From NCBI GenBank assembly GCA_964016885.1, contig OZ024740.1:250728001-250792000 (forward strand): a stretch of DNA of 64,000 nt, read 5' to 3'. Below are positions 9,960 to 39,683 of the stretch, one piece after another. The notes beneath the pieces are model-generated. The model was not told the DNA's origin. It made no database searches and saw nothing but the letters and a program-made list of their open reading frames with translations. Positions within the stretch are counted from its first letter, which is position 1, and each line of letters begins with the position of its first letter. This DNA comes from Eledone cirrhosa (Eukaryota). Both the position numbers and the translations under genes were made by a program.

Positions 9960-12900
9960 TCTATCTATCTCCCTGGAACATACCTCACTACCACTCCTTC
10001 CGTCTTCTTCCCCAATCGTCATTACGTGGTGTCGCCTCTGTCGCCTCTTTCGCAAGCGACGCCATTAAAGAAAAAGGAAAATGTAGTTTGTCGTAGCGTT
10101 CTTCATCAAGAGAACGCGCGTGCCGTGGAACATTTCTCCACGACGACGACGACGAAAGATGTGTGCGGTAAATACGGAAAGCCATTTCATTCGTCTGACG
10201 TCATGAAGTATAGCAGCAGCAGCCGTAATAACAGCAGCAGCAGCAAAACTGGCGAGAAAAATACTAGTAGCAGCTGCAACAGTATCAGAAGCAGCATAAA
10301 CAACAACAGCCGAAGCAGCAACAGCAACAGCAGCAGCAGCAACAGCAACAACAGCAGCAGCAGCAACAGTAACAACAACAACAACAACAACAACAACAAT
10401 AACAACAACGGCGGTTACGGCGGTCGTAGTACCAGCAGCAACAACAAGAATAACAGCAGCTCTGACGACAACAACAACAACAAGAAAGAAAAACCAATCT
10501 CGTTTGCAGGTATCGCAAAGAACCTGGACACCATCCTTATAACAAATGAAGAATTACAGGAAGCAAGGAAGATGTTGACGAAAACCGGACACCGAGCAAT
10601 CTGCAAGGCAACCGAAGAATTTTTTGAAATTCAACAGCACTGTACGGTCACGCACCGTACAGTAAGCACAAAATCACGTGGGATTGAAAGGGCCACAGAG
10701 ACTCAAATACAAAAAGCCTTAGGGTCTGTGTGGCAGCGGAAAACGCATATCACCAGAGGCAAGAACTATGCCACCGTGGACGTGCTTTTTGCCACACCCC
10801 AGGAGGCAAAGGCTCAATCCTTAGTGACCCTAAGGAGCGAGGAAATGGTGTTGGTGCCCTCCTACTACGGACAAAAAATTGTGAGGGTCAAACTGACCCA
10901 AGCCCCCCCCCCCCCCTCGGGATCGCCCCTTTTTGGCTAGCCGCGTCGTCTGTCCTCGTCGGAATCGAGAACAAAACAACCGTACTGCAAGTACAGAAAA
11001 AGCTACGAGAAGATTGGGTCGGCGCTTCCATTTTGATGTTAATTCAAACCGACCAGGAGTGTATCGAAGCTATCCCGGATGTGATATTCTTCGATAACGG
11101 CACTCAACTTCCCATAAGTGTTGAGGGCAAACGCCCGAAATGTTTTTCTGTGGGTCGAAGACTCACCTCAAGGTCTTCTGCAATGAGAAGACCCTGAGAA
11201 AAGAGAAACCCCCTCCTTCCGAGACCGGCTCCACTGCTACTAGAAGTAGGACAGGCGGCAAGGAGGAAGGATAGGTCCGTGGTACTCATACCCACGCACG
11301 GAAATAAAGAAGAGCAGCAGCAGTGGAAGTATTAACAACAACAACAGTAATACCAACTGCAGCTGCAACAGAGACTCCACTGCAACCATCACCAACATGA
11401 ACAAGTGAAAGAGTGGAGATGGTACCCCTCCCCGACCTCACAGAATCGGACATGGAGTGTGAGGTGGGAGAGGGATGGAAAAAGTCGCAAGAAGGCGCAA
11501 ACGCAGAAGCAGCGCATCGTTGCCTTCGAAAAGGGAGGGAAGAGATGAAAAAAGGGTGAAGGCTACTGCAAAGAGACTTACAGCAGCAACACCCCCAACA
11601 CCATCACCACCCACACTAGCACTACCATCACCACGGGCGGCAACCTCACCGCCAACAACAACACCTTCAACAACACCACCACAAGCATCAACATCGCAAA
11701 CACAACAACAAAACACACACACCCAGCAACAACGACAAGAAAATAGCAAAACCACACCCCACCCCCAATAAAAGAAATGCACAGCAATATATACACACAA
11801 CAAGAAACTAATGACTTACATAACTGAACACAGACATTTCACAGCACGACTACTTAATACCAGCACCAATCAAAACACCCACGAGCATAAGACTGGTAAG
11901 AATATCACAGAAACAATACACACATTAAAATGAAATTCCCCAACGCAGTTGGTGATTTCAGAGACCTAGGAGGGTCACTCAACCGGAGAGTATACTCGGA
12001 TATACTCACAGAAGAGCCGACGACCAGCCGAAGGGACGGTTCAACGGTCCCTTCACCAGACGATCAAGGTAAGTGATCCTTTCTCACTTGCCCCGTTCCT
12101 CACCCAACATGGCCGTATTCAGGATCGGAAGTGTAAACGTGCGTGGCTTGAGCTCGGTTTGGAAGCAGGGTCACTTGCTTAACGAACTCAGGTCACTAAA
12201 CATAGATGTAGTGGCAATGAGCGAGACGGGAATCTCCGAAGCATGAGCCTTCGCACCGATCTTCGCCGGCTACGATGTATACGCATCTCCCAGCCGTCCA
12301 GGATCAGGGGAGGTGTTGCCGTCCTTTTTCGGAAAGGCTTGAGTATCGCCATACGGAGCATCTTCCTGGACCCAGAAGGTAAGTCGGTGGTGCTGGACGT
12401 GAACGGTACCGAAGGTAACGCTTTCAAGCTAGTAACCGTCTATGCCCCGACAGGGACAGGACGGCCAGATTTCTTCAGACGTCTAGAGACCATTCTGGGA
12501 ACGTCCCACTCTTTAGTGTTTAGTGGGCGACTGGAACGGTATCTTGGATGCACGCTGGGATTGTGTGGGGATAGTGGATAGGCGAGGTGGGTGCAAGAGC
12601 CTCACCAACTGGCTCAGACGTTTTGAACTGTCTGACAGATATCGACTGGATCACCCGAATGTGCCAATGTGGAGATTGTCAAATCGCATCGGGCCATCCA
12701 GATCGTATCTAGATAGGGTATTCTGCAGGGAACTAGATAAGGCTAGTATAGGTTGTCCACAATTTAAAATAGTCGACTACACAGACCACAAATTTGTTGT
12801 TTGTGAGATCGACATAGACAGACTTCATAGACAAGGGCCTGGTTACTGGAAGCTGAACGCGTCTTTCCCGGCGCGCAAAGCCTAGAGAGACAGGATTAGC

Positions 12901-15715
12901 GTATTAGTTAAGTGGGCGTCAACAAAGTAGAGTCGATTAGGTTTAGCAAAGGAGTAGTGATAGAGGGAAATAGAGTAGAGGGAGAGCTAGTCAGAAAGCT
13001 AGAAGAGGCGTTTAGGACAGGCATCGCTACCGACGTGCTTGCGGCGAGATTGGCACTCGACCAATTCTTCAACGCAAAACACGAAGGCTGCGTTGTCAGA
13101 GCTAGAGCGCGTGCTCTGAAATACGAGGGGACGAAAGCCGTCCAATGAGCCCTGGTGGCAGAGGCGCGACGTGGCAACAAAGCCACAATTCGGTCTTTGT
13201 GTGACGAAAACGGGTGCGTGTTGCTCGAACCCGATCAGATGTGTGAGGCTTTTCAGCAGCACTTTGCTGAACTATTCGGGAGCGGCGGCGGGCCGGTTCG
13301 TTGTCTGGATTTCTGTGCATACCTCGACGGACTGCCTCGGCTCTCGATAACCGCAGCACAGTGTTGCGAAAAGCCGGTGAAATACGGGAAGCGATGGCTA
13401 ACTGCACGAGGGGTAAATTGCCAGGTTGGATGGTCTGCCCTACGAGATTTATGCATTTATGCCAGATTTGTTCGGTGACCTCTTGGCAGACGTCTACTGC
13501 AACTGGCAGCAGAACGGGAGCATTCCCATTTTTGTGAGCCAGGAAGCGGTGGCGCTGCTTAGAAAAGACCCGAACAAGGGGGATGTTATCGATAACTTCA
13601 GGCCCATAACTAAACGCAGAGTTCAAGATTTTGGCCTAGCTGTTAGCAACGAGCTTGGCGCTAGTCGTCGAGGGTCTGGTGGGAGAGTCGTATACATGCG
13701 CCATTCCGGACAGATCCAAACATGCGATACATCGTAGAGAGGGTGGTTAATGAACCTGGCACGGGTGGTGCCCTGATCAACTTGGATCAATCCAAAGCAT
13801 TCGATAGTGTCGACCATCGGTATCTGGCGGCGGTCCTCGAGGCAGCCGGTTTCGGGCCCGTTTTCAGGGGTTGGATCGCTGCAATGTACAGCGACATCAG
13901 CTCAGTTGTGAGGGTGAACGGTCACCTGTCGCAGCCGTTCAGCATCATGCGCTCGGTCCGCCAGGGTTGTCCCCTCTTGTCACACTTGTACGTATTGGCT
14001 CTCGAGCCGTTACTGCACAAACTGGGGGGTGATGAGGGGCGTCCCACGCTAACTAGGATGCGGGAAATCCGAGTCGGCTTTCGCCGACGACGTAACCGTG
14101 GTGGTGTCTTGCACCAGACACGTCCAGATGCTCGACACCAGTCTCAAGGAATAGGAAGCGGTGATAGTAGCAAGGATATACCAGGAAAAGTCGGTGGGCT
14201 TGCAGCTCAGCACCTGGAGAGGCAAGTCCATGCCGTCCCACAGCATCATGGGGCGTTGCACGGACGGACAGGTTAAATTGCTCAGGGTCTGGTTCGGACC
14301 GGACCTCCAGATGGAGAAAAACTGGAGCGAGGTGACGAGCAGGGTGGTCTCCCTCACCCAGAAATGGGCCGAGAGGAAGCTGTCCCTGAAAGGCCGGGTG
14401 GAGGTGGCGAATGCGTATATCGCATCCGTCATCTGCTACCGCCTGACCGTCGTCCCTTGCCCCGGCCCAACTCCCACCAAAATGGAGCGCCTCCTCTTCC
14501 GCTTTGTGTGGAAGGGACGCGCCCCCATGGTCAGACGATCCATCTGCTGTCAACACCCGTTACGTGGAGGACTGGGCATGCCATGGCTGATGATGCGCAA
14601 ACATGCGCTGAGACTGCGACATCTCTGGTGCTACCTTGACGATGAACAGGTGTGGTCACCGTTCACCAGGCACATTTTCCCACAGCTCGTCTCCTTGACG
14701 GAACTGCAGTCCTGGGTCAGGAAGAGAACAAGGGATAGCGCTTGGAAACTGGAATATCTCCAGGCGCGTACCGCCCTCTGCCAGCTGGGCAACAATATCG
14801 GTGGAACATCCACCTCGGCGTTCTATAGAGCACTATTGGAGGGGAAGAACGACGACGTTCTCGGAGAGATCCTGGGCGTCGAAGAAAATCAGCTGTTTGC
14901 TCTCTCGGAGAACATTCAGCTCAGGGCCTATGGATAACTTTCTGGCCTGGGGAGCTTTGCCGGTTCGAGATAAGCTCTACAGGCACGGAAGTGCCGTCAG
15001 CCGAGCCTGTCCGAGTTGCGCGCAGTGCGACGAAACCGTCGTGCACGCACTCGTTCAGTGCCCGAGCATTGCTGACTTGTGGAGCTATGTCGAACAGTTA
15101 CTGTCGCGTGTAGGACTGATCCGGTTATCGACTAAGTCCATTGTGCAGATGGTCTCGCCGTCTTCCTTCGAGGAGGAAGGGAGGCGGTTTTCATCTGCCT
15201 GGTGGCCATGGCGAAAGAGATTGTGTGGTGGATAAGGTTGAAAGGGTTAAAGACAGATACTTTCCTCTTCGGCGAATCCCTAAATAACTTTTTCAAGTTT
15301 CACTTGAAGAGGAAAATCAGGGTGGAGAAGCAAGTGCTGTCGTCTAGCAAGTTTGTTGAAAGGTGGGTGAATGTAGCGAGAATGGTCCGAGTGAACGGGA
15401 CCACTCTGAATATACGCTTGTAGTTTGAGGAATGGAAAAAAATTGAGAGAGGGCGCTTGCCCTGGTGGTCAGGGTGGCCGTGGGCTTTTGTGTGGTTTTC
15501 GCCACGAGTAACCCTATTGGGGAATTTTTCATTGTTTGAATTTTAATTTTTATTGTTTATATATATATGTTTCTACGTCGTTTTTTCTTTTTCGTTTCTT
15601 ATATAAATAATAAAAATCTTTACACGCACTAAACCCACATCGTACCGTCCTGTACCGTCCTCTGCCGTCTGTAATGTTTTTCTTGATGTCAGCCCTTGTG
15701 GCCAATAAAGAAATC
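9960..15715 (+). mobile_element. Tx1-clade non-LTR retrotransposon copy B, near full length, many frameshifts
   Basis: ORF1 remnants 10026-12075 (poly-N/S tract, SFAG, HRTVS, EGKRPKCF). ORF2 from ATG ~12109 to 15423 with APE, RT (QSKAFDSVDH, RQGCPL, FADD) and C-terminal CPSC..ETVVHALVQC. AATAAA at 15704 followed by ATC/ATT repeats. Confidence 0.93.
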
Positions 15716-15804
15716 ATCATTATTATTATTATTTGACATCGTTTAAACTAAACATTTTCAGAGACTGTAGAGATACAACAATAATTGTTTCTACGTTAGG
15801 CACA

Positions 15805-18800
15805 AAAAGCGTGAAGGGGCCAATTTTCTTTAACCATCTCTGGAAACTTTTTGACATAGTACCTAGTACGCCTATGACAATCGTGACCACTTTGACTTCA
15901 TGGCAGTTCCAAATCCTTTTTACCACCCACTTTAATTCCTGGTATCGGTTAATTTTCTCCCTCTCCTTCTCTTGCACTCTCGTGTCGAATGGGTAGGCCA
16001 CATCCACAATCAGGCACGATCTTTTTTCCTTGTCCAAAACCGCCAGGTCAGGTCTATTGTGTTCCAGTTTCTTGTCCGTCTGTATCCTAAAATCCCACAG
16101 CACCTTCACCTGATCGTTTTCTATCACCGACTCTGGCTTATGCTCATACCACTTCTCAGAATGTGTTAAATTGTTTACTTTGCATAGGTGCCAGTGGATC
16201 ACCCTGCCATCACATCATGCCACCAGCCTTTATAGTGAGTTTGGGCTAGGTGCTTACACTCGGATACAATATGAGCCACAGTCTCCTCTCTCTCTCCACA
16301 GATCCTGCACAGTGGGCTAGCCTCCTCCTTGTAAATATGGTGTTTCAGCCACTTCGCTTTGAGAGCCTGCTCTTGCGCAGCCATTAGCATTCCTTCTTTA
16401 GCCTTTTTAAGGTCTCCTCTTTTCAACCAGTTCCATGTCTGTGAATCTCTGAATTCAGTTTCTCAAAGAAGGTAATATGAAGGGATTTTTCATGAAGGCT
16501 GCTCTTTCTCCTTGTTGTTATTTTCTCCTTGGACATCCCCTGGTCTATTGTCCTCTCCTTCAGTACACTTCTTAGAATTGTCTCCTTACTATCGGTCACG
16601 TATTTGTGTAGGTTGTTTTTCTCCATCTGAACACAATCCTCTATGCTTATAAGAACTCTTCCACCTTCAGATCTCCTTAAGTAGAGTCTATCGACATCAC
16701 TCCTCTTGTGGAACATGTTGTAGATAGTCAATAGCTTCCTAGTCTTCCTATCCATTTCTTTTTGTTCAACAACGTTCCATCTCAGAATTTCCGCACTGTA
16801 CCTAATAATAGACACAGCTCGGGAATTTACTGTACTTATAGCATTCCTACTGTTCAGATGTGACTTTAATACGCTCCTTATTCTCCGATTGTATTCAGAT
16901 CTTATCAATTCCTTCATTTTTTTGTTCTTGATGTCATCTTCCCGAAGAGCTTAAGGTTATCCATGAAGAGGAGGTGATTGATGGTAAGCTCTCCCTTTCC
17001 CAACTTGTATCATGCTCTCACTTTTCGCAGTATAATGGTCAGGGGCATCAGAGCAAGGACAAACAACAGAGGGGACAGACTATCTCCCTGGAAGATACCT
17101 CTCTTGATCTTCACGCCTCCCAAGGATTCTCCAGCTGATGTTAACTCTGTTTTCCAGGACTTCATACTTATGCTCAACCACTGTCTGATGTTATCTGACA
17201 CCCTGAAGATCTCTAGGCTTTTGGTGATCCAAGAATGAGGCACCATGTCAAATGCCTTTTTGTAGTCTATCCATCCCATGGCAAGACCAGTGTGTCTCCT
17301 CTTGCAATTCCTCATTACCATCTTATGAATAAGTAACTGGTCTTTTATACCACGGGACTTCTTTCGGCATCCTTTCTGTTCGTCCAGTAACAAGTTGTTT
17401 GTGCGGAGGTGATGGTAGATTTCCTCAGACATAATGCTTGTCAACAGTTTCCACATTACGGACAGACATGTGATAGGTCTATAGTTGGTAACATCATTAC
17501 CCTTGATTCGGTATTTCATTACCAGAACTGTGGTACCTTTTGTCAACCACTCTGGTACCTCACCTGACATCAAGCAGTCATTGAACATGTTTGTCAGTTT
17601 CGGGTTGAGGGATGTTATATTTTTAATCCAATACCCCTGCACACCATCTGCGCCTGGTGATTTCCGGTTGGTTACTTTTTTGGCCTGCCTCTTAAAAGTT
17701 TCAACTGTGATACTCAAATCAGTTTGTTGGTGTGCCTGTTCACTAATCTCCTTCTGTACTGTCTCAATCCACACTGCCTGGTCATTATGTTTAAAATCCT
17801 GCTCCCATATTCCTCTCCAGAATGTCTTAGTTTGTTCCGCCTCAGGGATCAAGTCGTTGCCTCTTTCTTTCCCTTCAAGCTGCCCAAACAACATCTTCTG
17901 GTTGTTGTTAAACATGTGGTTCTTGTCTATACTGACTGACTCTGTTCTCGTATCGCCTAATTTTTGCACTCTTTGCTACAATGCGTTGCTTCAGTTCCTC
18001 TATGATAATATTTAGCTTTTTCCTCCTAGTTGTGTACTTTATTTCCAGTGTATTTTTAGAGTCTATGTTTTTTAGTGTCCCATTATGTAGGGACTCAAGC
18101 TTTCCAATGTCATTTCTCATTTCCCTCATTTGACCATTCAGTCGTTTCTTCCACCAAGGTTCTGATCTTTCTTGTTTGTTGTTTCCTCTCGCTTTTATGC
18201 CAAGTAATTTCCTCACCGCATTTGCTGTTGCTTTGAGGATATTGTTGCACTGGTGAAGGCTCCTCGCCTCAAGGTATGGGATGACTTTGTTTACCTTAGC
18301 TGTTGTTTCTTTTAACTTTTTCCTGTCTACAAATCTTAGGTTCATAGGTTTCCCACTATCATTGTTCATTTCATCTACCACTAAGTTTAGGATACCAACC
18401 AACTCTTGTCCTAGCCCGTTAGCATTCGTCTCCTCAATGGCCGTATCTCTGTTCCAGGTATTATTTATTTCAGCATTCAGATCATTGTCTGCTTCGGATG
18501 GTTCCTCCGTTCCCTCAACCTCTTCACCTTCGTTTCCCACTGGCTCGTTTGCCTGGCATACTCCACTCTCCATTTCCAACCTAATGTCTCTGCTCTGTTC
18601 CTCCAGTTCCAGCTCGCTTATCCACCCATTAATTCTTATTACCCGAGCCTGCCTGGCCATTTTTTTTCATCTAATTTAAATAGACCAATCTTGTTCCAGA
18701 TGTTATGCATCCGTTTCCTAGAGCCTTTTTCCTTGGGGTTACTCTTCAGGTATAACAGTTCTATTCAATTCTTTCGTCCAGTTGGTTCTGGTCCCTTTCC

Positions 18801-19704
18801 TTCTTCTTCTTCCTCCGACACCAGCAGTATTTGGATGACAGCCAGGTCCCTGCTGCTGAGCCAGGGAGCACCTGCTGGGTGAGAGTCTGTCACATGACAT
18901 TCCAATCTCCACTTCACCGTTATTTGAACTGTTTAAGTTCGACATTTAAACACTCTTATCGAGGATTGGTGAATGTATGATTACAAAACCACCAGTGATT
19001 TCATCACCCCCGGTGATTTTAGTGTGGCACTATCATGCTGTAGACGAACATAAATAAACAAACAAACAAATGGGTACCCCCCCCCCATAAATAAAACAAT
19101 AAGCATAAGTTTGATTGTAATGTAATGTTTGAATGTCTGACTTAGTTTTTTTTCTTGTCTGTCTGTTTTTCTTTTATTTTTCCTTTTCTTTACGTTTTTC
19201 ATTGCTCCTGTGCTGTTTTGATTTTGATTTTTGGTTTTTTGATTTTTTGACCGGGTCATCAAATCAGTCTATTTATATATTTTGATGCCTTCCTCATTTA
19301 GTGGGAGTACTAAGATGCCTGTCTTAGCAGGAGGTAGTGGGAGAGAATAGCGGCGGTAGCGATAATGAGGCAGCGATGGTGGTGATGTGATCGTAGTACT
19401 GTAGTGATGGTGTTGAAGTAGAAATAGAAGTTGAGGTAACTTGACTAGAGTTTTTGCCTGTCTGTCCACTTAGCCATTTTTCTCTTTTCCGACTATAACA
19501 TTTCTGATCCAAAATTAAATATTAAATATTGGGGCCATATGCTGTAATGTGATGCGTTGTCGCTTGCTGAGAGTCAAAATTGTAATCTTATACTTCATTT
19601 GTAATAAGAATTATTCTATCACAGTTGTTTTAAATAAGTAAAAATCAAAAACTTACGAGAGCGATTCCATAACGATATATATCCACCATGTGCGTTTTCT
19701 TCCC
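15805..19704 (-). mobile_element. R4/Dong-clade RLE retrotransposon family 1, copy 2, decayed with internal deletion
   Basis: ORF pieces 15729-18945 are highly similar to ORF 20049-23297. The RT region after FMDN is deleted (~16940). Retains ATG at 18945 (MSNLNSS). 5' end GGGAAGAA next to an ATT tract. Confidence 0.93.
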
Positions 19705-19944: not shown

Positions 19945-19974
19945 ATTATTATTATTATTATTATTGTTGTTATT

Positions 19975-22900
19975 CCTTGAATCTCAGTCATTGATGTTGG
20001 TTAACTGTAAAGTCCGTTGGAATGAATATCAAGCCACTACCTGCAGCCTCAGATATTCAGGACGTATCGGAGGGTTCTTGCTGTTCCAAGCAAGCATGCC
20101 TTTTGAAGCGTTCCAAAAAGCGTGAAGGGGCCGATTTTCTTTAACCATCCCTGGAAACTTTTGGAGATAGTCCCCAGTGCGCCTATGACAATCGGGATCA
20201 CTTTGACTTCATGGCAGTTCCAAATCCTTTTCACCTCCCACTTTAGGTCCTGGTATCGGTTAATTTTCTCCCTCTCCTTCTCTTGCACTCTCGTGTCGAA
20301 CGGGCAGGCCACATCCACAATCAGACACGATCTTTTTTCTTTGTCCACAACCACCAGGTCAGGTCTATTGTGTTCCAGTTTTTTGTCCGTCTGTATCCTA
20401 AAATCCCACAGCACCTTCACCTGATTGTTCTCCATCACCGCCTCTGGCCTATGCTCATACCATTTCTCAGAATGTGGTAAATTGTTTACTTTGCACAGGT
20501 GCCAGTGGATCACCCTGCCCATCACATCGTGTCTCCAGCCCTTATAGTGGGTCTGGGCTAGGTGTTTACACTCGGACACAATGTGAGCCACAGTCTCCTC
20601 TCTCTCTCCACAGATCCTGCACAGTGGGCTAGCCTCCTCCTTGTAAATATGGTGCTTCAACCACTTCGTTTTGAGGGCCTGCTCCTGCGCAGCCATTAGC
20701 ATTCCTTCTGTAGCCTTTTTGAGGTCTCCTCTTCTCGACCAGTTCCATGTCTGTGGATCTCTAAATTCAGTTTTCTCAAAGAAGGTACTATGAAGGGATT
20801 TTCCCTTAAGGCTGCTCTTCCTCCTTGATGTTATTTCCTCCTTGGACATCCCCTGGCCTACTGTCCCCTCCTTCAGTACAATTCTGAGCATTGGCTCCTT
20901 ACTATAGGTCACGTATTTGTATAGGTTGTTTTTCTCCATCTGAACACAGTCCTCTATGCTGATAAGACCTCTTCCACCCTCAGATCTCCTTAGGTAGAGT
21001 ATATCGACATCACTCCTCTTGTGGAACATGTTGTAGATAGTCAATAGCTTCCTAGTCTTCCTATCCATTTCTTTTTGTTCAGCAACATTCCATCTCAGAA
21101 TTCCCGCACTGTACCTAATAATAGACACAGCTCGGGAATTTACTGCGCTTATGGCATTTCTGCTGTTCAGATGTGACTTCAATACGCTCCTTACTCTCCG
21201 AATGTATTCAGTTCTTAACAATTCCTTCATTTTTTTGTTCTTTATGCCATCAGCCTCCAGAACGCCCAAATACTTGTATCCTTCCTCAGAGTCAATTTCT
21301 TTTATCATCTCACCTGTTGGTATCTGGATCCCGTTACTTCTGCTCAACCTACCCCTCCTCATCACAATGACTCCACATTTACCAATACCAAACTGCATAC
21401 ATATATCACTGCTGAAAATACGGACAGTGTCAACAAGCACATCCAACTCCTTCTCACTTTTCCCGAAGAGCTTAAGATCGTCCATGAAGAGGAGGTGATT
21501 GATGGTAAGCTCTCCCCTTCCCAACTTGTATCCTGCTCTCACTTTTCGCAGCATAATGGTCAAGGGCATCAGGGCAAGGACAAACAACAGAGGGGACAGG
21601 CTATCTCCCTGGAAGATACCTCTCTTGATCTTCACGCTTCCCAAGGATACTCCAGTTGATGTCAACTCTGTCTCCCAGGACCCCATACTCCTGCCTAGCA
21701 ACTGTCTGATGTTATCTGCCACCCTGAAGATCTCCAGGCTTTTGGTGATCCAAGAATGAGGCACCATGTCAAATGCCTTTCTGTAGTCTATCCATCCCAT
21801 GGCAAGATCAGTGTGTCTCCTCCTGCAATTCCCCATTACCATCTTATCAATAAGTAACTGGTCCTTTGTACCACGTGACTTCTTTCGGCATCCTTTCTGT
21901 TCGTCCGGTAACAAGTTGTTTGTGTGGAGGTGATGGTAGATTTCCTCAGACACAATGCTCGTCAACAGTTTCCAGATTACGGACAGACATGTGATGGGTC
22001 TATAGTTGGTAACATCATTACCCTTGATTCGGTCTTTCATTATCAGAACTGCGGTACCTTTTGTCAACCACTCTGGCACCTCACCCGACACCAAGCAGTC
22101 ATTGAACATGGCCGTCAGCTTCGGGTGGAGGGATGTTAAATGTTTAATCCAATACCCCTGCACACCATCTGGGCCTGGTGATTTCCAGTTGGTTAGTTTT
22201 TTGGCCTGCCCCTTAAGAGTTTCAACTGTGATACTCAACTCAGTTTGTTGTTGTGCCTGCTCACCGATCTCCCTCTGTACTGTCTCAATCCACCCTGCCT
22301 GGGCATTGTGTCTAACATCCTGCTCCCATATTCCTCTCCAGAATGTTTTAGTTTGCTCCGCCCCAGGGATCAAGTCGTTGCCTCTTTCTTTCCCCTCAAG
22401 CTGTCCAAACAGCATCTTCTGGTTGTTGTCGAACATGCGGTTCTGTTTATACTGACTGACTCTGTTCTCGTATCGCCTGATTTGTGCACTCTTTGCTACA
22501 ATGCGTTGCTTCAGTTCCTCTATGATAATATTTAGCTTTTTCCTCCTAGTTTTGTATTTTATTTCCAGTCTATTTTTAGTGCCTATGTTTTTTAGTGTCC
22601 CATTCAGTAGTGACTCAAGCTTTCCTATGTCATTTCTCATTTCCCCGATTTGCCCACTCAGTCGTTTCTTCCACCACGGCTCTGCTCTTTCTTGTCTGTT
22701 GTTTCCTCTCGCTTTTATACCAAGTAGTTTCCTCACCGTATTTGCTGTTGCTTTGAGGATATTGTTGCACTGGTGAAGGCTCCTCGCCTCAAGGTATGGG
22801 ATGACTTTGTTTACCTTAGCTGTTGTTTCTTTTAACTTTTTCCTGTCTACAAATCTTAGGTTCATAGGTCTCCCACTATCATTGTTCAATTCATCTACCA

Positions 22901-24521
22901 CTAAATTTAGGATGTCAACCGAATCTTGTCCTAGCCCGTCAGCATTCATCTCCTCAGTGGCCGTATCTCTGTTCCAGGTATTATTTATCTCAGTATTCAG
23001 ATCATTGTCTGCTTCGGGTGGTTCCTCCGTTCTCAGGACCTCTTCACCTTCATTTCCCACTGGCTCGCTTGTCTGGCATACTACACCCACCATCTCCAAG
23101 CCATTCTCTCTGCTCAGTTCCTCCAGTTCCAGCTCGCTTATCCACCCATTAGTTCTTATTACCCGAGCCTGCCCGGCCAATTTTTGTTCATCTAATTTAA
23201 ATAAACCAATCTCGTTCCAGATGTTATGCATCCGTCTCCTGTAGCCCCTCTCCTTGGGGTTACTTTTCAGGTAACATTGCATAACAGTTCTATTCAATTA
23301 TTTCGTCCAGTTGGTTCTGGCCCCTTTCCTTCTTCTCCTTCCTCCAACATCAGCAGTATTTGGTTGACAGTCAGGTTCCTGCTGCTGAGCCAGGGGGCAC
23401 CTGTTGGGTGAGAGTCTGTCACATCACGTTCTAGTCTCCATTTCACCGTTATTCGAACTGTTTATGTTCGATATTTAAACACTCTTATCGAGGATTGGTG
23501 AATGTATGGTTACATAGCCATCTGTGGATCCGCCATTCCACTTGGCCCTTGTGTGGCATTATCACCACGCTGTATACGAACACACATAAACAAACAAACA
23601 CACAGGCAGAAAGGGCCCCAAAAATGAATAGCATAAGTTTCATTGTAATGTAGTGTTCGAATATCTGACTTAGTTTTTGTTTTTTAAGTTTTAGTTTTTC
23701 CCCCCTCTTCTCTGTCCGTCCGCCTGCTTCTCTCTTCATTCTTATTTTCTTTACGTTTTTGGGGTTTTTTTGTTTCTTTGTTTTTTTGTTTTTCTCTGTT
23801 TGTTTTTCTCGTTTTTTGCTGTTGTTGCTGTGCTGCTTTGGTTTTGTTGTTTGTTTTTTCTTTTTTCTTTTGAGTCTATCTATATATTTTGATGCCTTCC
23901 TCTTTTTTAGCAGTAGGAATTCTATAATGTGGTGGCAGCAGCCAGCTGGGAGATGTGGAAGATTGGCGGCGGTAGCGATACTGAGACAGTGGTGGTGGTG
24001 ATGTCGATACCGAGGCAGTGGTGGCGGTGATGTGACCGTATTACTGTAGTGATGGTGCTGTAGCGGTGGTAGCAGTGAAGGAGTGAAGGGGTGGTGGCGG
24101 CGGTGATGGGATAATGGTGGTAATGATGGCCGTAGTGAGCGGTGGTGGTGAAAATGCCGTTATCTGGCTGTTGTGTTTAGTGTACACAGGTGATGGGGTG
24201 GGTGGTGTATCTAGTTTCTGGTGTTGGTGAGTTTGGCTGTTCTATATAGTGTAGACAGAGGAGAGGAGGGGGGGGGGTTCTTCTTCCATTTATAGCCATT
24301 TTCTTTTTTGGATATACAGTGTACAATAAAAAGTTGAATATTTGAATATTTGAGCCTTATAACAATATATTTTGGGTCCGAATTTTTTGGGGCTCAAGCC
24401 GGGTGCTTTACGTAGCATTTGTACTAAGAGTTGTTATTTCACAAATGATTTAAATATGTTAAAAATTCAAAACTTACGGGAGCGATTTCATGACCTCCGT
24501 CACCTCGTGCGTCTTCTTCCC
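19975..24521 (-). mobile_element. Full-length R4/Dong-clade RLE retrotransposon (family 1, copy 3) inserted in (TAA)n
   Basis: Single long ORF with RT, CCHC and restriction-like endonuclease domains. (TTA)n tracts at both ends (19945-19974, 24522-24565). TAA-repeat targeting is the known property of Dong elements. Confidence 0.93.
20049..23297 (-). CDS. RT + CCHC zinc knuckle + restriction-like endonuclease polyprotein (1082 aa open; ancestral start probably ~23473)
   Basis: WKSPGPDGVQGYW, NYRPITCL, WIDYRKAFDMVPH, GIFQGDSLSP, HLLFMDDLKLF, CRICGEREETVAHIVSEC, RHD, RPDLVVVD..IVDVACP..EK..RY. In-frame TAA at 23298-23300 and ATG>ATA change relative to copy 2. Confidence 0.9.
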   Translation of the reverse strand: MNRTVMQCYLKSNPKERGYRRRMHNIWNEIGLFKLDEQKLAGQARVIRTNGWISELELEELSRENGLEMVGVVCQTSEPVGNEGEEVLRTEEPPEADNDLNTEINNTWNRDTATEEMNADGLGQDSVDILNLVVDELNNDSGRPMNLRFVDRKKLKETTAKVNKVIPYLEARSLHQCNNILKATANTVRKLLGIKARGNNRQERAEPWWKKRLSGQIGEMRNDIGKLESLLNGTLKNIGTKNRLEIKYKTRRKKLNIIIEELKQRIVAKSAQIRRYENRVSQYKQNRMFDNNQKMLFGQLEGKERGNDLIPGAEQTKTFWRGIWEQDVRHNAQAGWIETVQREIGEQAQQQTELSITVETLKGQAKKLTNWKSPGPDGVQGYWIKHLTSLHPKLTAMFNDCLVSGEVPEWLTKGTAVLIMKDRIKGNDVTNYRPITCLSVIWKLLTSIVSEEIYHHLHTNNLLPDEQKGCRKKSRGTKDQLLIDKMVMGNCRRRHTDLAMGWIDYRKAFDMVPHSWITKSLEIFRVADNIRQLLGRSMGSWETELTSTGVSLGSVKIKRGIFQGDSLSPLLFVLALMPLTIMLRKVRAGYKLGRGELTINHLLFMDDLKLFGKSEKELDVLVDTVRIFSSDICMQFGIGKCGVIVMRRGRLSRSNGIQIPTGEMIKEIDSEEGYKYLGVLEADGIKNKKMKELLRTEYIRRVRSVLKSHLNSRNAISAVNSRAVSIIRYSAGILRWNVAEQKEMDRKTRKLLTIYNMFHKRSDVDILYLRRSEGGRGLISIEDCVQMEKNNLYKYVTYSKEPMLRIVLKEGTVGQGMSKEEITSRRKSSLKGKSLHSTFFEKTEFRDPQTWNWSRRGDLKKATEGMLMAAQEQALKTKWLKHHIYKEEASPLCRICGEREETVAHIVSECKHLAQTHYKGWRHDVMGRVIHWHLCKVNNLPHSEKWYEHRPEAVMENNQVKVLWDFRIQTDKKLEHNRPDLVVVDKEKRSCLIVDVACPFDTRVQEKEREKINRYQDLKWEVKRIWNCHEVKVIPIVIGALGTISKSFQGWLKKIGPFTLFGTLQKACLLGTARTLRYVLNI

Positions 24522-24565
<44 letters not shown>

Positions 24566-24566
24566 G

Positions 24567-27500
24567 AGTCTGAACGTCTTTTTACTCGCCCTCGTAAGTT
24601 TATTTATTTACCTGTCAAAACTTATTTATTGAATTTTTTGTTGGTGTGTAAGGCATTCAAGCCCTTGGGCTTTGCCCTATGAAGGGGAAAGCAAAATATT
24701 TGAACTCTTTTACATTTTAAAAAATTATCGAAAAAAAACAAAAAAACATGGCTGAGCCACGCCCCCAGCGATATCTCTGCTGTTGTGCGACAACGACGTA
24801 AAAGTTAAGAGGAGCGCTATGGCGAAATTAACAGAAATCGATACAACAAACACCACCACAAACAATGTGAACAAAGACAGCAATGATAACAACATTGAGA
24901 ACTCTAATTTTGAAAAAAAAATGACTAACAGCGACAACGAAAATACAGATAACAGGAAAGAATGACAACAAATGCAACAACAATATCAACATCACTAACA
25001 TGAAAACAAATAGCGACAACACCAACAGCAACAATACCAACTTCACCGAGAACAACGGCGGCACCAAAGACAACAATGATAACAGCGACAGTGATAACAA
25101 CAACAACATCAACAAGAACAACGACAACAACAACACCCCCAACGACAACAAGAAGAACACTTTCGCTGCGGCAGCAGCCAAAAAGAGGCCATGCTTCAAC
25201 ATGGACTTCTCAAACAAAGATGAAAAGTTGGCCCAGGTCTGGAAGCTCATCAAGCAAGAGCAAACCTGGGCCAACTTAACTGTCTCGGTAGAAGCTATTG
25301 AGGCAGTGGAGCGCAGAACGGTACATTATATATGCATCTCAGTACCAACAAAAGGGCAGCTTTAATTCCACAAGCAGATGTTGAACTCGCGCTGAGGTGC
25401 ATCAGAGATGACACCGAATACATAGCGAGGGGCAGACAGTACGGCACCATTTCGGTACTGTTTAAGTCAGAAGCCCTCGCTATGAAACACGCTAAACCAT
25501 CTCCGCATTCCCAGAATCCCACCAGGACTTGACATGTGGTGGCTTCTGGGATGTGTGGAGGGGACGGATACCGTCCCGATAAGAAGTGGCAAGAACTGCC
25601 AGAGAGGACTGGTCCGGAGTTGACCTGGAGATGCCTCTCCAGATCAGGCCCGAGAATGTGAAGACAATCCCGGACCACATCCGCCTTCAGAATGGGACGG
25701 TCTTTCATATTATGACCGAGGGCAAAAGGCCGCAGTGTTTTGTTTGTGGGGGAAAAAACCCATTTGCGAGCCTTCTTCCCTCAACTGCTGAAAGAGGCAA
25801 GGGGTCGAAGGGCTCCACTGCTGCCGACGCCGGAGCGAAGACCACAACCAACACCAGCACCGGAAAAACCACCAGCAACAACACCAATAGAAAGACCACC
25901 ACCAACATTGACCACCCAGGGAGGAAACGAGGAAAGTTGTCAAATTCCCCCTACCCCCCAAAATTCACACACCAATAAAAACATAAACACACACACACAG
26001 ACACACTTACAGACACAGACCCCTCATCTACCAGTAGTGAAGATGAGGGAAAACCAAAATCCCCAAAAATACAAAAAAAGAAACAAAAAGAAGAAAAAAA
26101 CTCAACAAAGCACAAAATCACCCACAATAAAAAAAAATGCAGACACCACCCACGCAAACATCTCCCCAATAACATCAACATCAACACCACCATCACAATC
26201 ACCAGAATCCCCCAAACGCAAACAACTTAAACAGACGCAAGAACAAATACACACACAAACATCTGAAACCACAGACACCGCACTCACAACAAACACAGAT
26301 ACAACAGAAACATCACCATCAAAATCATCACCACCACAGCCACGCAAACAAATAAAATCACACCAACAAAAGATACAAAACTTTGTGCTCGTCAGGAGGG
26401 CCAACAAGGAACTGATGGCCCTCGTAGCACGAAGTGAAGATATACAAAAAGAGAGGGAAATTTTTAAATCGAGCACATTTCGCGTGCCGGAAGATTTGTT
26501 TCTGGTGCGAATGTCGCTCGATTTATACAAAGAGATACGAGACAGCTTTCCTCGGGACGTGGGAACCCCGAACTTAAAACCCACTTCAAGACTTTTAAAG
26601 GGGTTCCCAAAAGAAACCCCACCAACTATGGAGGTCGAACCATCCGACCTTCACAAGAGCCCGGAAGGTCAGTAAACATTTCCTCTCTCTCTTTTACCCT
26701 GCCAAAATGGCCGTATTAAGAGTAGGAAGTTTAAATCTTCGAGGCCTGGGATCGTCCTGGAAGCAGGGTCACCTGCTCAACGACCTCAGGTTTCTAGAAA
26801 TTGATGTAATTGCCGTCAGCGACACCAGGATTTCCGACACGCGCGCACTAGCCCCCATTTTCGACGACTATCAGATCTTTGCATCTGTTAGTCGGTCGGG
26901 AATGGGAGGCGGGGTGGCAGTGCTGTTTAGGAAAGGCCTGGATCTCGAGGTAAGGTCGATCTTCTGAGACCCGGACGGAAAGTTGGTGGTCCTGGACGTG
27001 AACAATAACGAAGCTCGTGTCCATCTCAGTCCGTCAAAGACCGAATCGTGGTTTTATTACCACGTTGCGCCTCTGTAACACGGGCCCATCGAACAGCTTT
27101 GGTTCCCTCGTTTCTCAGACTGGTGGCCGTCTACGCCCCTACTGGGGCAGGACGACCGGACTTCTTTAGACGCCTGGAAACCTTTCTGGGTACGTCTCGC
27201 CCTTTACTGTTAGCGGGGGGACTGGAACGGCATCTTAGACGCACGCTGGGACTGTGCGGGAGTATGCGATAGGAACGAGGGGTGCAAAAGCCTCAAGAAC
27301 CTGATCAGCCAGTTCCAACTGTCTGACAGGTACTGACTAGATTTCCCCAATGCGCCAGTGAGGACCTGGACTAACCGCATAGGGTCATCTAGATCGTATA
27401 TAGACAGGATATTCATTAGGAAAATAGACAGAAATAGTGTAAGATGTCTACGTTTTAAAATGGTCGCCTATTCAGATCACAAGTTTGTGATCTGTATGGT

Positions 27501-30223
27501 CAACCTAGAGAAGATGCGCAGGTTAGGACCTGAACATGTCATTTCCAGCACTTAAGGCTTACAGGCACCAGGTCAAAAATTTAGTTAAAGAAAGGGTTGA
27601 CAGGGGGAGTCGTCAACAATAGATGTGGGGGGGGATCTCAAAAGAGAGATTAGGGTAATGTCGATAGAGTTTAGCAAAGAAGTAGCGTTAGAGAAAAATA
27701 GAAAGGAGGGGGAGTTGGTAGATAAGTTTGTAGTGGCATTGCAACTAACGTGCTAGCGGCGAGAATGGCATTAGACCATTTCTTCAATACCAAACACGAA
27801 GGTTGCATTGTCAGAGCTAAGGCGCGTGCTCTGAGAAACGAGGGAACCAAAGCTGTTCGATGGGCCCGTGTTACAGAGGCGCAACGTGGTAATAAAACCA
27901 CGATTCGGTCTTTGACGGACTGAGATGGACACGAGCTGAGTGATTCCAATGGATGTGTGAGGCCTTTCGCCAACATTTTACTCGCTTGTTCGGGGGAAGT
28001 GGCGGGTCAGAGACGGTGGCAGACTTCAATCCCTACCTCGATGGCTTGCCGCACCTCTCGACAGCCGACGCTGGGCGCTGCGAAAGGCCGATTACTTCAT
28101 CCGAAACTCAGGACGCCCTTGTCGGCTGCATGAGGCGCAAGTCACCCGGTTTGGATGGTCTGCTCTATGAGCTTTACATAAATATGCCAGACTTGTTCTC
28201 TGATCTCCTCGAAGCGCTCTACTGCAACTGGCAGCAGAATGGGAGTATTCCCAGTTCTGTGAGCGGGGGAGTGGTGACGCTGATAAAAAAAGACGAGAAC
28301 AAGAGGGACACATTAGACAATTTCAGGCCCATAACTCTGCTCAACACAGAGTTTAAGATTTTGGCTAGGGTGTTAGCGAAGAGGTTGGCGCTTGTCGTCG
28401 GGGATTTGGTTGGGGAGGCGCAAACTTGCGCAATCCCAGCCAGGTCCATACACGACAACCTCCACCTCATGAGATACATCATAGAGAGAATAGGGTGTAA
28501 ATCTGGCTTCGGTGGGGCTCTGATCAAATTAGATCAATCGAAAGCATTCGATAGGGTCGACCATCGGTACCTGGATGCTGTTCTCAAGGCGGCTGGCTTC
28601 GGCCCCGTCTTCAGAAGCTGGATCGCTGCAATGCACAGTGGCACCTGCTCGGTGGTCAAGGTTAATGACCACATCTCGGAACCGTTTCAGGTCTCCCGAT
28701 CGGTCCGTCTGGGTGCCCTCTTTCCTCCCTTCTGTACGTACTGACTCTCGAGCCTTTACTGCAGAAGCTGGAGCTGTTGCAGAGCATCCCGCTCGAATCG
28801 GGATGCGGAATGGCTGTTTCGGCTTATGCGGACGACATCACCGTGACAGCGTCGGACACCTCAGAAATCGAGGTGGTCGGTAACTTATTGGAGGAATATG
28901 AAAGGTTGACGGGAGCAAAACTTAACCCGGAGAAGCCGATGGGCTTGCAGCTCGGCACCTGGAGAGGCAAGTGTATGCTTCCAACAGAGTCGTTAGGCGC
29001 TGGACGGACGAACCGGTAAAGTTGCTCTGGGTTTGGTTCGGACCAGACCTCCAGGTGGATAAGAATTGGGACGAGGTGACGGGCAGGGTAGCCAATCTCA
29101 CCCAGAAATGGGCTGTGAGAATTCTATCACTGAAAGGTCGGGCGGAGGTCGTGAACGCGTACATCGCGATGACGCACGCGGAGAGGCTCTGGGCGTCAAC
29201 GAAGTCGAACTAACCAGTCTCTTCCGGAGGACTTTCGAGCCGGAGACGGTGGACAATTTCCAGAAATCCCTCGCTTGGCAGTGCTACCGGGGGGCACTGC
29301 CGATTCGAGATAAACTCTACAGGCACGGAAGTGCTGTCAGACGGACTTGCCCGAGATGCGCGCAGAGCGACGAAACCGTTCTGCACGCACTAGTCTAGTG
29401 TCCGTGTATTATTGACTAAAATGGCGGTGGATTGGCAGTATCGGTAGAGGTTCGGACGCCATGCTTTGACGCATAGAGTTACGGCCCTTGCCATTCTGAG
29501 TTCAAATCCCGCCGAGGTTAACTTTGCCTTTCATCCTTACGGGGTCGATAAAATAAAGTACCAGTAATGTACTGGGTAATTTTCTGGCCTTGTGCCAATA
29601 GTAGAAACAATTATTGACTTGTGGAGTCATGTCGAACAGCTATTGTCGCGCGTAGAACGGATCCGGCTATCGGCCGAGTCCATAGTGAAGATCGACCCGC
29701 CGCCTTCCTTTGGCCAGGAAGGGCAGGCAATTTTCCTCTGTCTGGTGGCAGTAGCGAACGATGTTTTATGGTGGACGAGGTTGAAAGGACTGAAGACAGA
29801 CACTTTTCTCTTCGGCCAATCTCTCATCAACTTTTTCAAGTTTCACTTGGAAAATAAGATAAGGGTGGAGAGAGAAGTGTTGCCCCCCAGTACATTTACT
29901 GAAAGGTGGGTGAATGTGGCGAGAATGGCCCGTGTGAGTGGGCCTACTCTAGTCATGCGCCTGTAGGTGGGTAAATTTGAGGAGGAGAGGGGTGCCCTTC
30001 CAGGGTGCTCTCGAAGCGTCGGGTCCTTCAGGTATGGTAGGGTACCTGAGCGAACACTGGGTGGTCACCCCCCCCCCCCCCATTGGGAAATTTTTCTTGT
30101 GTTTTTCTTGTTACTTTGTTATTGTTATTCATATTGCTTACTCGATTTTTCTGTAAAACCCCACTGTCCCAGTCTTTTGTATTGTCCCCTATGTGTCGGC
30201 CCTTGTAGCCAGTAAATGAAATC
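24567..30223 (+). mobile_element. Tx1-clade non-LTR retrotransposon copy C (diverged subfamily), decayed
   Basis: ORF1 remnants (poly-N, TFAAAA, RGRQYGTISVLF, EGKRPQCFVCG). ORF2 from 26707 (MAVLRVGSLNLRGL) to 29966 with KSPGLDGL, QSKAFDRVDH, SAYADDI. Flanked by (ATT)n on both sides. Confidence 0.93.
29422..29612 (+). mobile_element. tRNA-derived SINE inserted in Tx1 copy C with target-site duplication
   Basis: GGCGGTGGATTGGCAGTATCGG (A-box-like), GAGTTCAAATCCC (B-box), conserved core and tail GTAGAAACAATTATT. ATTATTGACT at ~29408 and ~29610. Confidence 0.9.
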
Positions 30224-30238
30224 ATTATTATTATTATT

Positions 30239-30426
30239 GTGGTGGATTAGCAGTATCGGTAGAAAGTCGGACGCCATGCTTTGACGCATAGATTTACGGC
30301 CCTTGCCATTCTGAATTCAAATCCCGCCGAGGTTAACTTTGCCTTTCATCCTTACGGGGTCGATAAAATAAAGTACCAGTAATGTACTGGGTAATTGTTG
30401 GCCTTGTGCCAAACGTAGAAACAATT
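30239..30426 (+). mobile_element. tRNA-derived SINE between ATT tracts
   Basis: Near-identical to 29422-29612. Confidence 0.9.
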
Positions 30427-30447
30427 ATTATTATTATTATTATTATT

Positions 30448-33183: not shown

Positions 33184-33214
<31 letters not shown>

Positions 33215-33240
33215 TGTATGTATGTATGTATGTATGTATG

Positions 33241-33850
33241 TTCTTCTGGTTTTATAATTTCACAAATTTTTACCAATAGAGAGAGAGTCGGTTTCTAACA
33301 TAGACACAAGACTCTCTCATTGGAATTTACACAACATCAACTAGGTAGATTATGTATGTATGCATACATGTGTAGATATGGATGTTATTGTATGTGTGGA
33401 TGTGGATGTTTTGAGTTGTATGTGTGCATGGTTATATGCTTTGTATCTGTACATGTGTATATGAAGTTATTAGATGCAACATTTTTGGAATGTTTTACAT
33501 ATTTTTACTGTTCCGTTAATGGATTGTACTTGTAATTTCCTAACTAGTTGTGTTCTTTCTGTTCCTGTGAAGCCTAGCATCTCAAGATTTGTATTGAAGC
33601 AGTTACTAACATACCCCAGTGCCCCAATAATCAGAGGCATAAATCTGCAGGTGTAATCAGGGTGGAGTATCTGCAGATTTCTCATCAGTTCTGCATAAAT
33701 ATACTCCTTTTCGCTGGCATCTGCTGGGCAGCTAATTTCCACTACTGTGCATGCTTTCTTTTCCCTGTCCCATATCATAATATCTGATCTGTTATGCCTG
33801 CATTTTATTGGGGTTTTTACTGAAACATTCCACCAGTACTCTTTCATATT
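33241..33850 (-). mobile_element. 5'-truncated RLE (R4/Dong-like) retrotransposon family 3, in (TATG)n
   Basis: ORF 33470-33847 [35 protein letters not shown] is an RLE domain. Perfect (TATG)n on both sides. Confidence 0.88.
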
Positions 33851-33925
33851 ATGTATGTATGTATGTATGTATGTATGTATGTATGTATGTATGTATGTAT
33901 GTATGTATGTATGTATGTATGTATG

Positions 33926-34557
33926 TCAGGTCACCAGGTCACACATTATGTCAGATCACCAGTTGGTGCTACTGGTAACATGTATCCCAGTACAACCTGT
34001 CTCATGGTCGCGTCGTTGGCGACTAAACTGGCAACCCCACCTAGGTTTCTTGGTGAGGAGGAGACTTTGGACATCCTGCAGGACTAAAAACAAAACCTGT
34101 CAAAGGGCAAAGGAGCTCTTAAGAGTCAATGGCCATCCAAAATCACCGGGAGAGATGACCCCTTAGCCTTTGTCAAGGCAGAATTCTAGGAGAAGGAAAA
34201 CTCTGATATAACACCTGCAACCCTGATGGTATCCAATGATGTTGACTTGTTCTTCTTTTTGGTAAATATCATCTTGGTTAAGAGAGTGGGACTGGCTTTG
34301 TGCAGTGCCTTTGCTCACTATAAAATCTTCACGGCACAGGCATTTCTTTATATCTGGAGATCTCTCTGCACTTGTCGTCACATGGTACCATGGGCCCAGC
34401 ACTATGTGTCAATAATTGTCACAGGTGTAGTGTTTGTACCAGAGTTTTCAAGTCGCTGGCTGGACTAAAAAGTCACACTTGTTCAGCGCATCGGTACGGG
34501 TTCTCCTACATGGATATAAAGTAGTGGCCGTACTCGAAAACGAGTTGGCAGCCACCA
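33926..34557 (+). repeat. ~610-bp interspersed non-coding repeat, copy 1
   Basis: TCAG.TCACCAGTTGGTGCTACTGGTAAC...GAAAACGAGTTGGCAGCCACCA; also at 37884-38489 (+) and 52719-53327 (-). Short 5' duplication in this copy. Confidence 0.9.
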
Positions 34558-34663
34558 AGTATATATATATAAATATATATATGTATATGTATGTATGTTT
34601 GTATGTATGTATGTATGTATGTATGTATGTATGTATGTATGTATGTATGTATGTGTGTATAAG

Positions 34664-34697
<34 letters not shown>

Positions 34698-34808
34698 TGT
34701 ATGTATGTATGTATGTATGTATGTATATGTAGATATATATATATATGTATGTATGTATATCTATGTGAATATGTGTATATGTGTATGTATGTATATATAT
34801 ATATGGAT

Positions 34809-34846
<38 letters not shown>

Positions 34847-34902
34847 TTCGTTTCTGAATTTGTTTAGCAAGATTCTTTATCTGAAATCGTGTGTTGAAAC
34901 CG

Positions 34903-36250
34903 ATATTGTTATACTTTGGGAGGGTCATGTTGCCAATAAGAAACACACGCACCAGTTGCTTTCACTTCAATTTATTATATATTTATAAATTTATAAATTT
35001 ACAAATCTACAAACTTATAAATTTCTGGTTGGTTGGTTGGTTCCACAACCAGATAGTTGTTTATATATAGTCATAGACCTTTCGTCACACACTCTGTGAC
35101 CTCTTCAGTGACTGGGGATTCCTTTCTTTGTTTCTGTGCCTTTCCTTTCTTCTGTCCTACGCCATTTTGTTTCTGTGTGTGTGTTGTGTGCTCAGTTTGC
35201 GCATGCGCCACATCCGGGTGTCTGTGTGTGTTTGTGTTCATTTATCTATTTGTTTATTTATTTACATGTTGTTGGTTGGTTGTTTGTTCTATGTGTGTGT
35301 TTTCATTTTGTCCTTAATTGTAAGTTGTGATGTTGCTGTTCCACTCATATTTTCTATTTAATTTTGGTTGTAATCCTTTTATGCTTACTGCCTCTGTAAT
35401 TTGCCTAAACATTGCATCTTTTCTGTGTGTGGATTCTATTTTTATTTATATGTTCTCTAATTTACCCTTGTGTTCCATCTTAGCATGTTGGTAGAGTACA
35501 GATGATTCTTTATTATCTTGAAAGTCTCGCCAGTGTTCATTTATTCGTTCCCCTATACTACGAGCTGTCTCACCTATGTACACTATATTTTTGTTTCTAC
35601 ATTGTCCTTCAGTACATCTTATGCTATACACTACATTTCTAGTTTTACAGTTAATATGGGGGCTTATTTTACAGGTTATACATTTCTTATCTATACATGA
35701 GGGTCTTTGGAACGGGTATGTCTTGCTAATAAGTGTTTTTACGGAGGTACCAGAAAAGATGCAATGTTTAGGCAAATTACAGAGGCAGTAAGCATAAAAG
35801 AATTACAACCAAAATTAAATAGAAAATATGAGTGGAACAGCAACATCACAACTTACAATTAAGGACAAAATGAAAACACAACCAACCAACAACATGTAAA
35901 TAAATAAACAAATAGATAAATGAACACAAACACACACAGACACACGGATGTGGCGCATGCGCAAACTGAGCACACAACACACACACAGAAACAAAATGGC
36001 GTAGGACAGTAGAAAGGAAAGGCACAGAAACAAAGAAAGGAATCCCCAGTCACTGAAGAGGTCACAGAGTGTGTGACGAAAGGACTATGACTATATATAA
36101 ACAACTATCTGGTTGTGGAACCAACCAACCAACCAGAAATTTATAAGTTTGTAGATTTGTAAATTTATAAATTTATAAATATATAATAAATTGAAGTGAA
36201 AGCAACTGGTGCGTGTGTTTCTTATTGGCAACATGACCCTCCCAAAGTAT

Positions 36251-36257
<7 letters not shown>
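34903..36257 (-). mobile_element. 5'-truncated Penelope-like element with inverted pseudo-LTR
   Basis: GIY-YIG fragment 35446-35775 (CITCK..NCKTRNVVYSIRC..VYIGETARSIGERINEH). Arms 34903-35426 and 35751-36257 are reverse complements. Confidence 0.9.
35069..35113 (-). ncRNA. Minimal type I hammerhead ribozyme in PLE pseudo-LTR (mirror copy at 36048-36092 +)
   Basis: AGTCA CTGAAGA G GTCAC-AGAGTGT-GTGAC GAAA GGTC TA TGACT: stem I AGTCA/TGACT, conserved core, stem II GTCAC/GTGAC, very short stem III. Confidence 0.8.
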
Positions 36258-36320
<63 letters not shown>

Positions 36321-36627
36321 GTGTGTGTGTGTGTATGTATGTATGGATATATATATATATGTATGTGTGTATGTTTGTATGTATATATATATAAATATAT
36401 ATGTATATGTATATATATATATGTGTGTGTGTATGTATGTATTATGTGTATGTAAGTATCTATATATATATATATATATATGTGTGTGTATGTATGTATC
36501 TATATATATATAAGTATATATATATATGTATATATGTGTGTGTGTATGTATGTATATGTATATAGATATATATATGTATATATGTATGTATATGTGTGTA
36601 TGTATATATATATATATATATATATAT

Positions 36628-37860: not shown

Positions 37861-37883
37861 TATATATATATATATATATATAT

Positions 37884-38489: not shown

Positions 38490-38526
38490 ATGTATGTATG
38501 TATGTATGTATGTATGTATGTATGTA

Positions 38527-38566
<40 letters not shown>

Positions 38567-38860: not shown

Positions 38861-38916
<56 letters not shown>

Positions 38917-39274: not shown

Positions 39275-39306
<32 letters not shown>

Positions 39307-39614: not shown

Positions 39615-39683
<69 letters not shown>

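Follow-up and report, generated by a model that had tools for sequence, protein, structure and literature searches.

The window, as the whole 64,000-nt stretch of Eledone cirrhosa DNA analysed here is called, contains three copies of Dong-type retrotransposons that have a 5' module in common. Copy 1, a full-length element of family A and of its young subfamily SF1, occupies positions 19965-24521 on the minus strand and lies between (TAA)n tracts, the target tract of its 5' junction being at 24522-24565 (-). Read from its 5' end, it consists of a first exon of 44 nt (24478-24521), the putative splice donor GTAAGTTT (24470-24477), which is the start point of six genomic deletion events, and a proximal AG (24303-24304) situated 175 nt from the donor, the equivalent of which is used in two apparently spliced family-B copies. 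The first exon forms part of the 5' module common to families A and B, which extends over approximately 23800-24521 in this copy. Further downstream are a purine-rich tract (23675-23735), weakly predicted to pair with the U/G tract that follows; a block kept across family-A subfamilies at 87-91% (23626-23673), which lies within the proposed intron and is retained in the one spliced family-A copy; the T/G-rich tract with its TACAG (23570-23625), the best acceptor-like site of the element, used by no genomic copy; and the family-A ORF-proximal leader (23475-23569), which shows homology to the short leaders of relatives, namely to their 3' part. All these features are on the minus strand, as is the single ORF (20049-23474), with a reverse transcriptase (RT; FMDD at 21488) and a presumed CCHC knuckle and PD..D nuclease.

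The protein of copy 1 matched the Pfam family RVT_1 (E 2.5e-23), with no APE family among the matches, and a PDB search returned R2 proteins, the closest solved relatives, as top matches. A motif scan identified CxxC...HxxxxC at residue 893 and RPDL...DV...K at residue 978, which we take to be a CCHC knuckle and a PD..D..K nuclease. The siblings of copy 1 have open frames of 1,141 amino acids in many copies, and TAA or TAA/GAA tracts are found at their 5' junctions, TAA also at their 3' ends. Because a single RT/CCHC/PD..D ORF is combined with a TAA target, the target given for Dong in PMC3812793, the element is assigned to the Dong type of the R4 lineage of non-LTR elements with a restriction-like endonuclease (RLE), an assignment made by domain motifs and target. 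A quick protein tree of 20 rows, whose relatives include no named Dong or R4 sequence, was used descriptively only. In the 3.0-Gb genome, the first-exon end has a GT directly after it at 1,943 places, corresponding to a young and abundant family with about 2,000 full-length 5' ends.

The ORF of copy 1 contains two stops near its N-terminus and has its first ATG at 23441. The initial annotation placed the start codon about 95 nt past TACAG; this agrees well with copy 2, where ATG 18945 lies 92 nt past the AG, but in copy 1 the codon at that position (23474) is ATA. The change of the ancestral start ATG to ATA, with an ATG 11 codons later (23474-23441 in the window), was seen in 50/50 aligned SF1 copies.

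Copy 2 (15800-19704, minus strand) is an older family-A copy with donor 19656, TACAG at 19038, and its ORF in fragments. Copy 3 (7878-9849, plus strand) has donor 7923, a proximal AG at 8089, and a candidate AG at 8934. All three 5' ends had been attributed to one family, of which two copies were thought to reach the ORF; copy 3, however, also reaches it, with an ORF that starts at 9163 and is open to 9849, and it belongs to a different family, B, which shares only the 5' module. At an internal TAA site it carries a SINE-like repeat (8267-8472) that has TG at 8291, where many copies of this repeat have the AG used in two of the spliced copies described below (L220 and L226).

The same repeat occurs in TAA tracts, including those of Dong leaders and ORFs, at 8267-8472, 29408-29615, 30224-30434, 51420-51609, and 57217-57393, and one of its strands ends in a pyrimidine tract and AG, which apparently acts as an acceptor. 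ARAGORN found no tRNA in it, and the label 'SINE-like' is therefore given for its size and copy number. A second, older LINE family with RT fragments is represented by three copies at 70-74% identity (3037-7406, 10644-15078, and 27115-29167). Fragmented ORFs at 42151-43973 (+) and 45690-48248 (-) have no Pfam match and resemble Penelope-type RT/GIY-YIG elements, and an open frame at 2-919 (-), with a 69-nt coding repeat nearby (1645-1917), resembles a Helitron Rep-helicase. Long inverted repeats around TA/TATG microsatellites, MITE- or fold-back-like, are present at 33185-42149 and 48637-54190 (e.g., 41558-42149 and 39721-40279).

Two families with a common 5' module

The first 100 of the 1,943 places, taken without selection, comprised 72 copies of family A, 20 of family B, and 8 unassigned. 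The proteins of the two families are 36% identical over 1,065 amino acids, whereas their 5' modules, over a length of about 700 nt, are as much as 92% identical for certain pairs of subfamilies, with a shorter match for SF1. Family B is devoid of the TACAG site, its candidate AG being another one (8934 in the window), and its ORF-proximal leader (9017-9162, plus strand, in copy 3), 72-76% like the short leaders of relatives, is absent from family A.

These relatives were retrieved as 79 related loci from metagenome contigs, 28 of which were examined upstream and 13 of which have a visible TAA boundary. The leaders of these 13 measure about 150-300 nt (one about 470) and contain no GTAAGT, as compared with 0.9-1.4 kb here, and the 5' module matched none of the 79 loci. 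Likeness to relatives is confined to the ORF-proximal parts of the family-A and family-B leaders, beginning in family A at TACAG. Given that the two families share the module while only the ORF-proximal parts match relatives, the module would be an acquisition that was swapped between families. Inter-family mosaics were also observed (L147, L121, and L152), in which a family-B ORF is preceded by a family-A front end or by an SF1-type module.

The donor and the shortened genomic copies

The donor motif, a C followed by GTAAGTTT, is found at 24477 (-), 19656 (-), and 7923 (+), at distances of 44, 48, and 45 nt, respectively, into the element from its GGGAAGAA 5' end, in agreement with the 45-50 nt given previously. 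On the sense strand of copy 1 it is the sole GTAAGT among 9 GTRAG sites. The donor block is identical at 8/8 positions between subfamilies SF1 and SF7, as opposed to 47% identity in the middle of the segment, and its maintenance while the rest of the module fell to this level points to selection. The first exon also carries an E-box-like CACGTG/CACATG/CACGAG (24490-24515 (-) and 7885-7900 (+) in the window), a candidate promoter element.

Copies in which the first exon is not followed by GTA were sought in the genome with short motifs. The first motif search gave 21 matches (17 point changes and 4 deletions), the second 8 (the same 4 deletions, L118, one single-base loss, and two unrelated matches), the third 16 (14 point changes and 2 junctions), and the fourth 23, all of them point changes; this approach is blind to junctions with NTA as next bases and to copies with an altered first-exon end. 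Of the roughly 1,970 copies in the genome that possess the first-exon end, 7 loci show a deletion beginning at the donor, and these amount to six events: L067/L068 (a single event, duplicated), L069, L073, L118, L220, and L226. In L069 and L073 exactly 167-169 nt are missing, from the GT to the proximal AG, the deletion of L067/L068 ends 5 nt before this AG, and that of L118 extends about 10 nt beyond the candidate AG of family B. In L220 (family B) and L226 (family A), whose leaders contain an inserted SINE-like repeat, the exon is fused to the AG of this repeat; what is missing of the repeat is exactly its pyrimidine-AG tail, and the element then resumes. Four of the six events hence end exactly at an AG, two at that about 170 nt downstream and two at the repeat acceptor (P 7e-4). 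All six copies start at a TAA/GAA tract and retain the ORF-proximal block of their own family; five run to the TAA 3' tail, and the sixth was read only partway.

A background of 35 deletions of at least 50 nt was counted in 413,573 copy-positions of 100 copies, so that 0.33 events are expected at the two scored positions, compared with the six observed at the donor (P about 1e-6). Since L069 and L073 have one nearby base change in common, they may be one event, which leaves five events and a P of 3e-5. A control at intron position +57 gave 0 matches, with the copies carrying the control motif uncounted, and the 23 matches of the fourth search, a control at +3, included 0 deletions. The proximal AG is present in 41/72 readable copies, its distance from the donor being 167-169 nt in family B, and this family accounts for 5/6 events with about 22% of the copies (P 0.002). 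Spliced copies represent about 1.2% of family B and 0.07% of family A, i.e., about 18-fold fewer per copy in A. As the sequence missing from these retrotransposed copies runs from exactly this G up to AGs further downstream, the donor is likely to be a real splice site that is active in both families, and we infer from the genomic junctions that RNA of the element was spliced and then underwent target-primed reverse transcription.

The proposed acceptor and the 908-nt segment

The partner of this donor had been proposed to be TTCGT(A/C)TACAG followed by C, which indeed ends at 23570 (-) and 19038 (-), with donor-acceptor spans of 908 and 619 nt as initially reported. Across family-A copies the span varies from about 670 to 1,740 nt, and the 619-nt span is shorter than the 680-nt majority of the nearest subfamily. 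The site at 23570 ranks first of the 388 AGs of copy 1 for T/C richness, and TACAG is present in 60 of the 100 unbiased copies, 72 of which belong to family A. Between subfamilies, the last 25 nt of the site agree at 22/25 positions (88%), versus 91.5-93% at 4-fold ORF sites. The misaligned 5' part of the SF2-SF7 alignment was left out of the subfamily comparisons; conservation among the 50 near-identical siblings was not counted as evidence of selection. The TACAG acceptor is no better conserved than synonymous ORF sites, and the earlier notion of conserved boundaries therefore stands for the donor but not clearly for the acceptor.

The search for intron-less copies likewise divides the proposed GT-AG intron into a donor that is borne out by the deletions and a 24477-23570 unit that no copy exhibits. 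A junction between the donor and a 23570-type acceptor was found in 0 of an estimated 1,500 or so family-A copies, searched from both the donor and the acceptor side, with an upper 95% bound of about 0.2% of these copies. A first acceptor-side search gave 5 matches, of which 3 are point changes, one is a local loss of about 9 nt, and one is a 5'-truncated copy whose first base is that right after the AG; as all five are on one strand, this search may be incomplete. A second gave 8 matches, all point changes, and a search for a junction at the family-B candidate acceptor gave 0. The 5'-truncated copy L239 begins at the first base after TACAG (equivalent to 23569 in the window), a single case that is within chance. 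Another two unrelated 5'-truncated family-A copies (L352 and L355) start at the same base, equivalent to about 23661 on the minus strand, inside the conserved block and just after an initiator-like AGTCAGA; the shared base may mark either a second start site or a hot spot of microhomology. A further start common to truncated copies sits at a clear microhomology.

Joining the donor to TACAG would reduce the upstream ATGs from 12-18 to 4-5 and leave a leader of about 140-170 nt. A coding role for splicing was considered and discarded, as this joining leaves the ATG of the first exon out of the ORF frame in 3/3 subfamilies, and no joining tested brings it into frame.

RNA folding offers a lead as to why TACAG is not used. 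In 10/10 folds the U/G tract was predicted to be paired (0.53-0.86), its partner being the purine tract just upstream. Folding z values between +0.85 and -2.45 correspond to energies that are not unusual for the composition, covariation was weak, with a preference for the cognate arm of only 1.2 kcal/mol (p 0.034, from non-independent clusters), and the acceptors that were used were predicted to be 0.35-0.72 paired. According to these models, TACAG is probably masked by this pairing, with a hairpin that is mostly compositional and is to be taken as a lead, not a result.

Interpretation and comparison with known systems

The explanation that we favour, at a probability of about 0.5, is that the 5' module was acquired and that its donor, close to the element start, is spliced only now and then, to such acceptors as are accessible, with SpIRE-like copies as the product. 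A TAA-targeting Dong-type element would thus carry an acquired module with its donor about 45 nt from the start; the spliceosome would use this donor only occasionally and with whichever acceptor is accessible, TACAG probably being hidden, and the spliced RNAs would then be re-inserted as shortened copies. Most template RNA would be unspliced, so that the 908-nt stretch would act as a leader and not as a routinely removed intron. The donor block may be kept for a role in transcription or RNA fate, as a promoter element or for start-proximal U1 binding, by analogy with what has been argued for the L1 donor. It is odd for this explanation that the best acceptor-like site (rank 1/388) is unused while a poor A-rich AG is used, and the excess of events in family B looks as if something removed spliced family-A RNA.

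These two points are accommodated by an extension of the initial proposal, a tentative and less probable alternative, in which the donor and TACAG bound an often-spliced intron and the spliced RNA is the messenger, barred from integration by the loss of an intronic cis element such as the 23626-23673 block. The absence of intron-less copies at TACAG is a prediction of that model itself, and it is in line with the strength and the frequency of this acceptor-like site, with the lower number of upstream ATGs after joining, with the activity of the donor in family A (L226), with the approximately 18-fold deficit of spliced copies in this family, and with the retention of the ORF-proximal block in all six spliced copies. 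The Penelope intron, which according to PMC2377424 starts 46 nt from the transcript start, is removed from most transcripts, and is retained by genomic copies, provides a precedent. However, about 1,500 family-A copies hold no direct trace of such a splice, the acceptor is not conserved above 4-fold ORF sites, family B has the donor without a TACAG acceptor, and the first-exon ATG is not brought in frame. The model also needs the extra assumption that TACAG-spliced RNA is excluded from integration, because spliced RNA can evidently serve as a template, as it did for the six other spliced copies; these other spliced RNAs integrated full length, and spliced L1 RNAs do integrate (PMC5860796). In its boldest form, which we consider doubtful, an R2-like LINE would have a two-RNA life cycle, with a real intron in the captured module, a spliced messenger strictly barred from reverse transcription because the needed cis element is intronic, unspliced RNA as the genome, and a module that moved between families 36% identical in protein.

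An improbable origin is that the module is what remains of a first exon and intron captured from a host. A shortened ancestor would have landed behind a host acceptor, read-through RNA would have been retrotransposed, and the 5' part would have recombined onto family B, leaving splice sites that are unselected. The family-A likeness to the leaders of relatives begins right at TACAG, the module matches 0/79 related loci, and modules were swapped between families at up to 92% identity, all of which would fit; yet the donor block is kept where the rest of the module is 47% identical, which points to selection. It is very improbable that the shortened copies result from DNA repair or template jumps, with GT and AG motifs being chance in a composition-biased leader. 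In favour of this view, short similar sequences flank the two ends in L118, one G is common to the repeat junctions, L067/L068 do not end at AG, and internal deletions are common (35 in 100 copies). Against it, six breakpoints coincide at a site for which 0.33 are expected, four of the deletions reach exactly to an AG, both families and two unrelated acceptors are involved, and the control positions are empty.

These findings provide evidence, at the level of the genome, for passage of the RNA of a restriction-nuclease (R2-like) retrotransposon through the spliceosome, and they suggest that such elements may swap a short ancestral leader for an exchangeable 5' module with a splice donor. If true, a split between messenger and template would bear on how LINE proteins pick their template. 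The family is young and has many open frames.

No published report of splicing in Dong/R4 elements was found in a literature that includes few subscription journals. The insertion into (TAA)n and the single ORF with RT, CCHC, and PD..D nuclease are shared with Dong, DongAg, and DongBg of the R4 lineage (PMC3812793 and PMC3774820). Bombyx Dong, according to the latter, has an HDV-like ribozyme that cleaves at the 5' junction and frees the 5' end, whereas here no Rfam ribozyme match was obtained in 8 loci, and a descriptor built for this purpose, run without a positive control, gave 0 matches in 13 regions. The element also differs from its 13 TAA-bounded relatives in its much longer leader.

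As for Penelope of Drosophila virilis, PMC2377424 and PMC3846280 describe a 75-nt intron seen by RT-PCR. Penelope resembles the present element in that its donor lies about 45-46 nt from the start, within the 5' leader, and in that genomic copies keep the segment; it differs in its GIY-YIG enzyme and in a possible antisense template, and here spliced copies occur, while the 908-nt splice is only proposed. Penelope had been cited as the precedent, but for what the genome shows, L1 5' UTR splicing is closer. Human L1 SpIREs, as reported by Larson et al. 2018 (PMC5860796), arise from one donor (G98U99) and several acceptors and account for about 2% of full-length copies. The likeness lies in a single conserved donor close to the 5' end (at about +45 here) that is combined with several acceptors, in the rarity of spliced retrocopies, and in a majority of unspliced copies. 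L1 is an APE element, unlike the restriction-like-nuclease, single-ORF, TAA-targeted element of this work, in which, furthermore, the donor resides on a module common to two families whose proteins are 36% identical, a nested repeat supplies the acceptor in two events, and the strongest internal acceptor is without a product.
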